Made by a program: the position numbers and the translations under genes. This document shows, piece by piece, positions 11,512 to 16,972 of a DNA stretch of 26,935 nt. The notes under the pieces were generated by a model. That model was not told the origin of the DNA. It did not search any database and worked only from the letters and a program-made list of their open reading frames with translations. The first letter of the stretch is position 1. Each line of letters starts with the position of its first letter. Source of the DNA: Holosporales bacterium (lineage in GTDB: Bacteria > Pseudomonadota > Alphaproteobacteria > BNTO01); assembly GCA_031290075.1 (NCBI GenBank), contig JAITOG010000033.1:1-26935 (forward strand), written 5' to 3'.

Positions 11512-12633
11512 TTATTTATTTTCCTTTGTTGCAATTAAAGCCGCTTCTAAAAAGCAATCAATATTGCCATCAAGCACCCCAAGCGCATTTCCAATTTCCA
11601 CGTTCGTCCTTGCATCCTTTACAAGTTGGTAAGGTTGCAAAACATAAGATCTAATTTGGCTTCCCCAAGCAATGTCCGCTTTATTTTTTTCTTGTTCATC
11701 AACTTTGGCCTGTTTTTTTCTTTGCTCTGCTTCATAAAGCTTAGCTTTTAGCATTGCCATTGCTGTTGCCCTATTGCGGTGCTGAGAACGGTCAATTTGG
11801 CACGAAACAATAATTCCCGTTGGAATGTGGGTTATTCTAATTGCGCTATCCGTTTTATTTACATGCTGCCCCCCGGCTCCGGAAGAACGGAAGGTATCGA
11901 CGTGTAAGTCTTTTTCTTCAATTTTAATATCAATACTTTCGTTGATTTCAGGGTATGTCCAAACGGAGGCGAAGCTTGTGTGACGGCGAGCGTTGGCGTC
12001 AAAAGGAGAGATTCTTACAAGTCTATGAACCCCATTTTCTGTTTTTAGCCAGCCATAGGCTTGAGAGCCCGAAATTTTCAGATTTATTGACTTAAACCCG
12101 GCTTCTTCTCCAATGGTTTCGTCAATTATTTCTACTTTAAAATGGCGCTCCTCAGCCCACCTTGAATACATCCTGGCAAGGATAGCAACCCAGTCTTGGG
12201 CTTCTGTTCCTCCAGCTCCTGAATTTATTTCTAGAAAACAATTACAAAAATCGGTTTCTTCAGATAACAAAAGCTCAATGCGAAGTTTTTCAAGTGTTGC
12301 TTCTAGGGATTGCAAATCTTGGCAACAAGTATCGAAGACCTGCTCATCATCTTCTTCCTTTGCAATTTCCAATAGGGCACACAAATCTGTGAAATCACGT
12401 ATATGCGCAGAAATTTTTTTAACTTCATCCTCAAGGTGAGACTTTTTCTTCATAATTTTATTGGCTTTTTGTGGATCATCCCAGAAGGAGGAAGATTGAA
12501 CCAATTCTTTATAACCAGACAACTCCCCTACTTTTCTCTCAAAATTTGAAGAAATTTTTATATCTTCAAGCTTTTTTGTAATATTTTCAATAAGCAGAGG
12601 AGCGTTAAAGTTATTTAGTCAAAACTGCGACAT
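11512..12633 (-). CDS. prfB: Peptide chain release factor 2; true start uncertain, in-frame TGA at 12619-12621
   Basis: GAGGTEAQDW, SPF (RISPFDANARRHTSFASV), GGQHVNKTDSAIRITH and WGSQIRSYV. The frame is open upstream of the track start (TTG 12522) to TGA 12621-12619. In-frame ATGs lie beyond it at 12633 and 12669. Confidence 0.95.
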
Positions 12634-12791
12634 GTGGAATACCTGTGAAACAAAGGAATGAAATCTCATTAACTCAATAGTCCCTATTTTTCAAACGAAA
12701 TGCAAGAAAAAAATAGATAAGAAAAAATAAACATTTTTTTTATTTATCTAAATTATAATTATACTTATGAATAAATATTTCAAATATAGCA

Positions 12792-14441
12792 ATGCTTTTT
12801 AGTACTGAAGAATTTTTTCAAGAAATATTATTAAATAGAAATTTAGTTTCTATTGATCAAACACTTATTGTTCAAAAAGAATTGAAAAAGAAAAAAAATA
12901 GTTATTCTTCAATTAATACTCCTTTAAGGTTAGATGAAATATACATTAAATTTGGTTTTATTTCTCAACAGGCAGCCCAACAAATCCTTACAGAAATAAC
13001 AGGCTTTCAATATATTGATCTTAATGAATTACGTCTTAATAAAGATATTTTTCGATTAATTGATGAAAAAATCCAAAAAAATTGTTTTTCTGTTGTTTTT
13101 GATTACTTTGAACAAATATTGAAAATTGCGATGTATGATCCTGAAGATTTATCTTTAAAGGATGTTCTTTTACAAAGTATTTCCTCTTCTAATGTTTTTG
13201 GGCCAAATACAAAAATTACATTTTTTTATGCAAATAAGGTAGAAATTTTAAAAATTTACAAAAATTTTTGCGTTTTTGATGAAAAAAATGAAAAAAACTA
13301 CATTTCTGAAAATAACGCCGATCTCAACTATTATAATGTAGTTGATTCGATTGATACCATTTTACAAGAAGCTGTTGCTAATAATGCTTCTGATGTACAC
13401 TTTCACCCAGAGCAATTTGTTGTTCGCGTACGACAAAGGATTGATGGGATTTTGCACACAGATTGCAGTATTCACAAAGATGTTTGGCGTAATTTTTTAG
13501 TCCGTTTTAAAATCCTTTCTAATTTGGATATTTCAGAATCGCGCCGCCCGCAATCAGGACATTTTGAAAAAGAAGTAAATGGAAAAATGTGTGATTTCCG
13601 AGTTTCTACACATCCAACGGTTTTTGGAGAAAGTATAGTTATTAGGATTCTTCAAAAAAATAGAAAGATACTTACGCTTGACCAGCTAGGATTTGAAGAA
13701 AAAGTTGTGGAGCAATTAAAAAATATAATAAAAGCTCCACATGGGTTGATCTTACTTTGTGGTCCTACAGGTTCTGGAAAGACTACGACTTTATATACTT
13801 TGTGTTCTTGCTTAAATTCAGAAACTCTAAATGTTATGACTTTGGAGGATCCTATTGAATCTTTGTTAAACGGCATAAGGCAAACAGAAATAAGAGAAAA
13901 CGGCGTTTTGAGTTTTACAGAAGGAATTCGCTCTATTTTAAGGCAAGACCCTGATGTAATTTTTATTGGGGAAATTCGAGATGAGGATACGGCTCAGATT
14001 GCTTTAAGAGCTTCATTAACGGGGCATCTTGTGCTATCTACCTTGCATGTTAATGACGTTCTTCATATTCCTAATCGCCTATATGATCTCGGCTTAAAAC
14101 CTTTGATGCTTTCTGGGCAGCTTTTGTTTTTAATGTCTCAACGTCTTGCAAGAAAAATTTGCGTAAATTGTAGTGGAAAAGGGTGTAAACAATGTAAAAA
14201 TAGCGGGTTTAAAGGGCGCTTTGCTATTACTGAAACGCTGGAAATTAATGCTGAAATAGACAGATTAATTTTAGAGCAAGCGTCTATTCAAACACTTTTT
14301 GAAACAGCTAGAAAATATGGATTTAATACAATGTATGAAGGTGGCATGGAAAGAGTTAAGCAAGGCCTTACAACTAGGCAGGAAATTGATAGGCTAGTAA
14401 AAAATGTATATACTGGGGTCCCCAAAGAATGCGGATTTTAA
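12792..14441 (+). CDS. GspE/PilB-family secretion or pilus assembly ATPase
   Basis: ASDVHFHP, RQRIDG, RRPQSG, Walker A GPTGSGKTT, TLEDPIE, LRQDPDVIFIGEIRD, TGHLVLSTLH and a CxxC..CxxC zinc motif. Confidence 0.93.
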   Translation: MLFSTEEFFQEILLNRNLVSIDQTLIVQKELKKKKNSYSSINTPLRLDEIYIKFGFISQQAAQQILTEITGFQYIDLNELRLNKDIFRLIDEKIQKNCFSVVFDYFEQILKIAMYDPEDLSLKDVLLQSISSSNVFGPNTKITFFYANKVEILKIYKNFCVFDEKNEKNYISENNADLNYYNVVDSIDTILQEAVANNASDVHFHPEQFVVRVRQRIDGILHTDCSIHKDVWRNFLVRFKILSNLDISESRRPQSGHFEKEVNGKMCDFRVSTHPTVFGESIVIRILQKNRKILTLDQLGFEEKVVEQLKNIIKAPHGLILLCGPTGSGKTTTLYTLCSCLNSETLNVMTLEDPIESLLNGIRQTEIRENGVLSFTEGIRSILRQDPDVIFIGEIRDEDTAQIALRASLTGHLVLSTLHVNDVLHIPNRLYDLGLKPLMLSGQLLFLMSQRLARKICVNCSGKGCKQCKNSGFKGRFAITETLEINAEIDRLILEQASIQTLFETARKYGFNTMYEGGMERVKQGLTTRQEIDRLVKNVYTGVPKECGF

Positions 14442-15698: not shown

Positions 15699-16514
15699 TT
15701 ATTGCAAGTAATTTATTAGTATTGAGGAAATATCAATAATTTTTATTTTGTTTTTAAATAAGATATTATGGATATTTGTAGTAAATAAAATTTTAATATT
15801 TTCCATAATTTTATAAAATACTTCAGTTTGGCTTTCAGCTAGTACATGAGTTACGATAACGACAATTTCACTAATTCCCATTTCTTGAATCTCTTTAATT
15901 GCTGCCCATATTGTTTGCCCAGAAGAAATCATATCATCTACGATTATACACTGTTTGTAATCATCTATTTTTTCTGGCAAAGAGATAATGCATTCATTTT
16001 TTCTGCGTTTTTTTATTGCTGTAAACGTGTTCAACCCTAATTTTCTGGCAAAAAGTGCCGCTCTATGGCGCGCCCCTTCATCTGGCGCTAAAACAAAAGT
16101 TTTCTTGCTAATAAACTCCTTAAAGTCACAACCGCTGAAAATCTCGGCTAAAGAGATATTATTAACATTTCCTGCAAAAAATTCATGAAAATCGCAAGTA
16201 ATCATCTTTTTTCCGATTTTTTGTAAAAAAATATCGTATAAAGCTTTTTCCCTAGAATACGGCATGTATGGCATACAAATTGTTTCAAAGCTTAGCTGCC
16301 TTCCTAAAGCCAAAGCACCAACAATCCCATCGTTTGGCATTTCGTAAGGTAATTGAAGCAATACCTTTTTCTTCCTTTCTTTTGGCAATTTCCAAAAAAT
16401 CTCTCCATCAGGATGATACTCATGCTCAACGTATACACAATCAATATTGCGCGTTTCACACAACTTTATAATAGAATAAAGTAAATCTGATTTTTTCCCA
16501 GTTAAAAATATCAT
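15699..16514 (-). CDS. prs: Divergent ribose-phosphate pyrophosphokinase (PRPP synthetase)-like protein
   Basis: HPDGEI, PYMPYSR, TCDFH, LAPDEGA and the PRT motif IIVDDMISSGQT, plus IVTH. Short (271 aa) and lacks a recognisable RQDR loop. Confidence 0.75.
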   Translation of the reverse strand: MIFLTGKKSDLLYSIIKLCETRNIDCVYVEHEYHPDGEIFWKLPKERKKKVLLQLPYEMPNDGIVGALALGRQLSFETICMPYMPYSREKALYDIFLQKIGKKMITCDFHEFFAGNVNNISLAEIFSGCDFKEFISKKTFVLAPDEGARHRAALFARKLGLNTFTAIKKRRKNECIISLPEKIDDYKQCIIVDDMISSGQTIWAAIKEIQEMGISEIVVIVTHVLAESQTEVFYKIMENIKILFTTNIHNILFKNKIKIIDISSILINYLQ

Positions 16515-16972
16515 TTTATATTTGCTTGTACTGTAAATGAAACCTGTTCTCTAACCTTTTCGGTCACAACACTTCCCTCAATTTTTAGAATCAATGTTTG
16601 ATTCTTGGGGGCAAATTCTTCAATTTTGACTTTTACCCCTTGCAGCCTTGGCTCAAATAGTCGAATTATAAGCTCACACTTTTCCTCTAACTTTCCCCAA
16701 CTTGCAGTATCTTCTATAAAAATATTTTCTGTTACTGGGAAACCAAGAAGTCCAGGGATCCCGGCTAGCTTTGTTTCGTCTTCATCAGCTTTTTGTAAAA
16801 ACTCATCTACTTCATGTATAGAAAAAGATGATCTTGTTTCAAATATTTCCGTTAATTCTTTTTGTATTGATTCCAAAAGTTCGTTAAAAGTAAAGAGGAT
16901 TTTTGTTGCTTGTTCGGCATTGGCTGTTAGCTGGTCGAAAAATGGGGCAATTGCAACAAATTGTTTTTTCAT
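16511..16972 (-). CDS. tssE: Type VI secretion baseplate subunit TssE (gp25-like)
   Basis: LLESIQKELTEIFETR, LGFP and IIRLFEPRLQGVKV follow the gp25/TssE pattern. 153 aa from ATG 16972 (the track starts at 17077). Confidence 0.75.
   Translation of the reverse strand: MKKQFVAIAPFFDQLTANAEQATKILFTFNELLESIQKELTEIFETRSSFSIHEVDEFLQKADEDETKLAGIPGLLGFPVTENIFIEDTASWGKLEEKCELIIRLFEPRLQGVKVKIEEFAPKNQTLILKIEGSVVTEKVREQVSFTVQANIK

Follow-up and report, generated by a model that had tools for sequence, protein, structure and literature searches.

Autoregulation of release factor 2 (RF2), by which translation is terminated at UGA, through a programmed +1 ribosomal frameshift in its own gene, prfB, is the textbook example of autoregulatory recoding. 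In the classic arrangement a Shine-Dalgarno (SD)-like element is followed, after three nucleotides, by the shift site CUU UGA C, located at codon 26 in Escherichia coli, and the main reading frame goes on in +1 from a slippery CUU_U (or UUU_U). The RF2 gene itself thus contains, near its start, a UGA (in rare cases UAA) with C as the next base, and because UGA is specific to RF2, this factor competes with recoding and thereby limits its own synthesis. Programmed readthrough of UGA by near-cognate tRNA-Trp is also known in bacteria, for example in the coat/A1 extension of phage Q-beta, where a normal tRNA, competing with RF2, inefficiently decodes a UGA that lies in frame. Why prfB employs a frameshift rather than readthrough is a standing question. 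It has been described that readthrough of an early in-frame UGA at low RF2 levels was entertained before prfB was sequenced, and sections 29 and 45 of the review in question state that such a UGA is absent from all RF2 genes sequenced (Atkins et al. 2016, PMC5009743); according to the same sections, no known organism has substituted readthrough for the regulatory frameshift. Here, prfB of a Holosporales bacterium (assembly GCA_031290075.1, contig JAITOG010000033.1) was analysed in a window comprising a whole stretch of 26,935 nucleotides. In this gene and its closest relatives the initiation codon is followed, within a few codons, by an in-frame UGA and the dinucleotide CU (UGA-CU), and comparative evidence suggests, with a probability of roughly 0.7, that negative feedback of RF2 through readthrough of this UGA has replaced the frameshift.

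The cassette is located on the minus strand of the window and is read in a single frame. An ATG (12633-12631) is followed by TCG CAG TTT (Ser-Gln-Phe; 12630-12622), TGA (12621-12619), CTA (12618-12616; Leu, with which the conserved N-terminus of RF2 begins) and AAT AAC. After the TGA the same frame is open for 368 codons (12618-11515) until a TAA (11514-11512), and encodes a complete RF2 with PCRF and RF-1 domains (PF03462 and PF00472; E-value of 9e-114 to E. coli RF2, 1gqe) and with SPF and GGQ motifs. Readthrough from ATG 12633 would give a length of 4+1+368 = 373 codons. Of the alternative frames at the UGA, +1 after TTT reads GAC TAA and -1 is closed after six codons. The earliest ATG, GTG or TTG 3' of the TGA is a TTG at codon 33 (12522-12520), used as the start by gene callers for a 336-amino acid product (P0001, P-numbers denoting called proteins) without approximately 32 N-terminal residues. 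The counterpart of the ancestral CTT TGA C shift site in the window is TCT TCA AAT TTT GAG, read in frame, of which AAT TTT GAG (12546-12538) aligns with the GGIFD motif of frameshift-carrying relatives and has no SD-like element upstream. The first-pass annotation of this locus had described the frame, the TGA, the 336-amino acid product from TTG 12522, the 373 codons and the shift-site homologue, and each of these sequence statements was correct on re-reading. The genome to which the window belongs (G000, the window being its contig C106) is an 820-kb metagenome-assembled genome (MAG) of 115 contigs, 78% complete and with 33% GC.

prfB was located in 40 relatives. The GTDB order of the window comprises the same set as its family (ten genomes, seven genera), and eight further assemblies (L195-L201 and L203, L-numbers denoting other loci or contigs) were found by protein search followed by contig look-ups. 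The clade so defined consists of order-level, small-genome alphaproteobacteria labelled at NCBI as Holosporales or Alphaproteobacteria bacterium. All ten genomes of the order and all eight further assemblies (18/18) carry ATG, one to four more codons, TGA and CTN in frame with RF2, and the cassette is for this reason not attributable to chance; the in-frame TGA and the upstream in-frame ATG, whose retention among relatives had been put forward as a check on the readthrough proposal, were both kept throughout. Including the ATG, the leader is two to five codons long (four in 13 of the 18 genes). Its stop is TGA in every case, never TAA or TAG, and is always followed by C. Codons 5' of the UGA are TTT (ten genes), ATT (five), TTC, GCT and TCG (one each), while those 3' of it are CTC (eight), CTA (five) and CTG (five). 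TGACT is the sole invariant run in a nucleotide alignment of the 18 cassette genes, third codon positions around it differing in approximately 70% of pairs. For one relative (G007) prfB is split across two contigs, with the 5' part reading ATG ATG GCA GAC ATT TGA CTA. Since TGA makes up 17% of genuine stops yet is found in 18 of 18 cassettes, its exclusive use is taken as the strongest sign that selection maintains RF2 sensing.

This conservation also bears on whether the gene might be a pseudogene, or the TGA have arisen through an error of sequencing or assembly. The moderate depth of the MAG (word depth of about 8x) lends some weight to an error. However, 18 independent assemblies from at least seven genera share this TGA, and the open reading frame (ORF) is intact with its SPF and GGQ motifs. 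The single public run in which the sequence occurs, probably that of the source sample, is a termite gut metagenome; a Logan contig, assembled separately from this run, matches the window without a difference from 12300 to 12900, TGA included. No RNA run turned up. The sequencing error considered by the first-pass annotation is excluded by conservation across seven genera, and the likelihood of a pseudogene or an artefact is judged to be negligible.

Beyond the clade, the cassette was absent from approximately 200 screened RF2 loci of other alpha-, beta- and other bacteria, these possessing either the classic AGGGGG-N3-CTT TGA C (GGIFD signature) or an unshifted ATG start. A scan of JGI metagenomes for more relatives yielded just distant RF2 sequences (at most 57% identity), each with the classic arrangement. 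In the literature, full-text searching included, a prfB with an in-frame UGA was not found to have been reported, nor is such a gene mentioned in the 12,751-genome survey by Prince, Lin and Feaga (bioRxiv 2024, mBio 2025) or in a 2026 preprint on the loss of prfB autoregulation.

In a tree of RF2 all cassette genes fall together (SH-aLRT 87). L202, which is sister to this group (SH-aLRT 99 for the two combined), carries the classic site in the form AGGAGG TCT CTT TGA C, and the remaining alphaproteobacteria in the tree are mostly of the classic frameshift type. Given this grouping and the frameshift-type sister, the in-frame UGA most likely replaced the frameshift once, with a single origin from frameshift-bearing ancestry. 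In the window, AAT TTT GAG at 12546-12538 (minus strand) also spells TTT TGA G in another register, which has no open upstream frame; this register is a vestige of CTT TGA C, retained as the Phe-Asp/Glu residues are conserved.

The cassette has also been altered within the group. L194 (1501-1520; assembly ERZ27293309 k141_489332), nested deep in the group and adjoining L195, reads ATG GAT GCC CTC TTT ACG, so that the ATG, two leader codons and CTC are in frame and only the TGA is absent; its spacing to the conserved LLKKL motif equals that of its sister. This loss of the in-frame TGA shows the leader to be tolerated as part of the RF2 protein, and L194 is a natural constitutive variant suited to comparison. 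A TTATACT-like motif, which may be a -10 promoter element, lies 30-45 nucleotides 5' of the prfB ATG in L195 (1440-1460), L194 (1440-1470) and L201 (1300-1330).

Several lines of evidence place initiation at the conserved ATG. Pairing with the anti-SD sequence is strongest in the 15 nucleotides before this codon (mean of -4.9 kcal/mol), compared with -1.0 kcal/mol before CTN, -2.2 ahead of the canonical start that comes first downstream and about -2.4 within the ORF (p of 0.0003 to 0.005 in paired Wilcoxon tests among related lineages). The sole SD-like signal in the cassette precedes the ATG, 16-25 nucleotides from the UGA. A further upstream in-frame ATG in the window (12669-12667, in the context AGGGA-N11-ATG) is not conserved and is probably not the prfB start, as relatives show stops or unrelated sequence at that distance; a promoter scan comparing ATG 12669 with ATG 12633 gave one site against 4.3 expected and did not discriminate between the two. 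CTG 12597 and ATT 12591, which had been suggested as non-AUG starts, are not conserved as starts and this suggestion was discarded.

The region between the UGA and the first downstream canonical start is relevant to the possibility that RF2 begins at such a codon (TTG 12522 in the window) with a shortened N-terminus, ATG-TGA being incidental. This is the model given by gene callers, as with the 336-amino acid P0001. The position of this start is, however, unconserved, lying anywhere from codon 3 to codon 54 after the TGA among the 18 genes, and SD pairing is weaker there than before the ATG. Pairwise differences at codon positions 1, 2 and 3 are 0.57, 0.38 and 0.71 over codons 1-20 after the UGA, the same pattern as in codons 21-45, which indicates that the stretch directly after the UGA evolves as coding sequence. 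Counted from the TGA, residue 10 corresponds to residue 11 of E. coli RF2 (1gqe) in the alignment, and helix 1 of domain 1 is matched from residue 11 on; the TGA therefore stands at the place of Met1 of an ordinary RF2, to which the leader adds five N-terminal positions. An incidental feature would furthermore not preserve ATG and TGACT in 18 of 18 genes, and a downstream start is thus considered very unlikely. Public prfB gene calls in the clade (P0001-P0019) begin at arbitrary downstream TTG, GTG or ATG codons and give products of 290-368 amino acids; up to approximately 80 N-terminal residues are therefore missing from the annotated RF2 proteins, an error in annotation which the present finding corrects.

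A different reading of the same cassette is that ATG...TGA forms a separate mini-ORF of two to five codons, with RF2 initiating independently at or just after the next codon, whether through termination-reinitiation or from a non-canonical start (CTG, for instance), and this initiation being tuned by the speed at which RF2 clears the UGA. An RF2-specific TGA would be selected under a mini-ORF as well, CTN lies precisely where Met1 of unshifted RF2 aligns, and the codon is CTG, a weak start, in five of the 18 genes. In the other 13, however, it is CTA or CTC, which are two positions off AUG and are not known to serve as starts. Nor is such initiation favoured by the pairing of just -1.0 kcal/mol before CTN, and L194, despite being without the TGA, retains its leader fused in frame, which is a prediction of readthrough and not of a separate mini-ORF. 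On balance, independent initiation after a mini-ORF is thought unlikely, and in-frame UGA readthrough is preferred.

Apart from this position, UGA is not special in these genomes. Among ORFs of at least 150 amino acids, 92 of 548 end in TGA in G000; past such a TGA another stop (TAA or TAG) comes after a median of 11 codons, which equals the value for ORFs closed by TAA or TAG. A complete relative (G001; 1,326,212 bp) has TGA at the end of 132 of 551 long ORFs, and extensions past these stops behave as in G000; the share of TGA is thus 17-24%. No excess of TGA between long open frames parted by a single stop was found in either genome. Genuine TGA stops are followed by C less often than by any other base (3/67 in G000, 17/132 in G001), and C is invariant after the prfB-internal TGA. 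The genetic code is standard and TGA an ordinary stop in both genomes, as the first-pass annotation had maintained for the window.

These data weigh on the explanation that UGA has a dedicated decoder, be it a suppressor or selenocysteine (Sec) tRNA, or that a change of code with UGA as Trp is under way. Alphaproteobacterial symbionts in which UGA encodes Trp exist, and G000 is incomplete, with just 22 tRNAs found. The complete genome of G001, however, encodes 46 tRNAs, none with the anticodon UCA and no tRNA-Sec, and a single tRNA-Trp(CCA). A special tRNA-Trp was also sought in the form of a 4-bp anticodon stem (cf. PMC13092985) or a Hirsh-type 11-24 pair and was rejected, as the stem is 5 bp in G000 and G001 and the 11-24 pair is C-G; the tRNA-Trp of G000 is ordinary. 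Together with the normal behaviour of sequence downstream of TGA stops, the lack of in-frame TGA excess and the conservation of RF2 itself, this makes a dedicated decoder highly improbable, and reassignment of UGA (code 4 or 25) was rejected on the same grounds. Lineages with code 4 resemble the clade in that their symbiont genomes are small and AT-rich and take UGA as a sense codon, but they lose prfB and gain a tRNA-UCA or a tRNA-Trp with a 4-bp stem, whereas the clade keeps prfB and TGA as a normal stop, with readthrough proposed at this site only. No tmRNA gene was detected by ARAGORN in G001 (1.33 Mb) or in G000, although a two-piece alphaproteobacterial tmRNA may have been missed.

Frameshifting at the cassette UGA in the +1 or -1 direction was rejected, as neither frame stays open beyond a few codons and the GCT and TCG that precede the TGA in two genes are not slippery. 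The UGA could alternatively be passed by a stop-hop or bypass to a matching downstream codon, or by paired frameshifts. G000 has a second TTT five codons after the first, and in-frame stop-hopping has been demonstrated in synthetic E. coli constructs (PMC5009743). A matching landing codon is not conserved, however, and none is near in L004; the other two frames close at once and the residues between evolve as coding sequence. Bypass of this kind is accordingly regarded as scarcely plausible compared with in-frame decoding of the UGA.

With regard to the classic frameshift, the clade genes are similar in having an early UGA-C within the RF2 gene, so that RF2 would compete with recoding in both, and in having U directly before the UGA in 17 of the 18 genes. 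They are unlike it in that the downstream ORF is in frame 0 with the +1 frame a dead end, in that there is no internal SD-like stimulator three nucleotides upstream of a shift codon, and in that the codon before the UGA is unconserved (GCT and TCG occur) with the UGA at codon 3-6 rather than around codon 26. The prfB genes of the clade are thus assigned to RF2 autoregulation via an internal UGA, outside the +1 frameshift family. Features typical of programmed readthrough are present, namely a same-frame ORF with a coding signature past a conserved stop and a conserved leaky context, TGACT.

In the proposed mechanism, ribosomes would initiate at the conserved ATG (12633 in the window) and meet UGA-CU after one to four further codons (three in the window). 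When RF2 is plentiful, it would release a peptide of two to five residues at the UGA (a tetrapeptide in the window) and no RF2 would be made; when RF2 is scarce, a near-cognate tRNA would decode the UGA in frame and the 373-residue RF2 would be produced. The likeliest decoder would be the ordinary tRNA-Trp(CCA), in keeping with the general leakiness of UGA in bacteria, and with Trp inserted the predicted junction peptide is MSQF-W-LNNFNAPLLIENITK. RF2 output would fall as RF2 rises because RF2 alone reads the UGA, the same logic as that of the classic cassette. The position of the UGA so near the start may be explained by cost, as the abortive product would be kept cheap if readthrough is inefficient.

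The substitution of frameshift feedback by UGA-readthrough feedback, which the first-pass annotation had proposed, is supported by all comparative checks, including the in-frame TGA and ATG in 18 of 18 genes and the SD before the ATG. A number of points weigh against it. As tRNA-Trp is ordinary in these genomes, the efficiency of readthrough may not exceed a few percent, a figure known for the leakiness of UGA in E. coli. RNAalifold predicted no pairs around the UGA in the 18 sequences, and hence no downstream stimulatory structure, a feature which some readthrough systems have and others do not. The SD of the window itself is weak (CAGGT, with AGG at 12644-12642; -3.9 kcal/mol). A canonical start is located within five codons past the UGA in two of the 18 genes (an ATG in L004, at codon 3, and a GTG in L009, at codon 5), so that some UGA-independent synthesis is possible in these. 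The cassette genomes are furthermore kin, so that the 18 counts are not independent events and the origin is probably single. Lastly, the readthrough itself, the inserted residue, and the dependence of yield on the RF2 level are inferred from comparison of sequences. The more extensive proposal, that this is the first case in nature of an RF2 feedback loop by in-frame UGA readthrough, a loop hypothesised long ago, evolved from and replacing the near-universal +1 frameshift and stably kept across an order-level clade by a minimal cassette (ATG, one to four codons, UGA-CU) with no RNA structure and no special tRNA, is considered probable, if slightly less so than the replacement of the feedback as such.

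Other recoding systems share parts of this arrangement. In phage Q-beta the UGA yields a C-terminal extension at a fixed ratio, whereas in the window the UGA, whose decoding by a normal tRNA is predicted, would gate the whole protein from codon 5 onwards and the product would be the competing factor itself. From what is described of plant eRF1-1 (PMC5397192), this release factor likewise senses its own abundance via the efficiency of termination on its own mRNA, but the system is eukaryotic, uses the normal stop codon with readthrough coupled to nonsense-mediated decay (NMD) and has no early gating stop. A release-factor gene of a giant amoeba virus, as outlined in PMC5009743, is similar in needing readthrough for release-factor expression; it is of the eRF1 type in a eukaryotic host, combines readthrough with a separate frameshift and has, in that account, no demonstrated feedback.

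The clade appears to have substituted readthrough for the frameshift, and L202 and the clade offer a comparison of sister lineages in which the gain, cost and sensitivity of the two forms of recoding may be set against each other. At less than 25 nucleotides, the cassette would represent a very small natural sensor of RF2.

The window also carries secretion- and injection-related genes. A gene for a secretion ATPase of the T2SSE family (12792-14441, plus strand) is divergent from prfB. Two genes are contractile-injection or type VI secretion system (T6SS)-like: that at 16511-17077 (minus strand) encodes a baseplate wedge protein similar to gp25/TssE (PF04965), and that at 18696-21017 (plus strand) a spike resembling VgrG, with Phage_GPD, Phage_base_V and Gp5 C-terminal domains.
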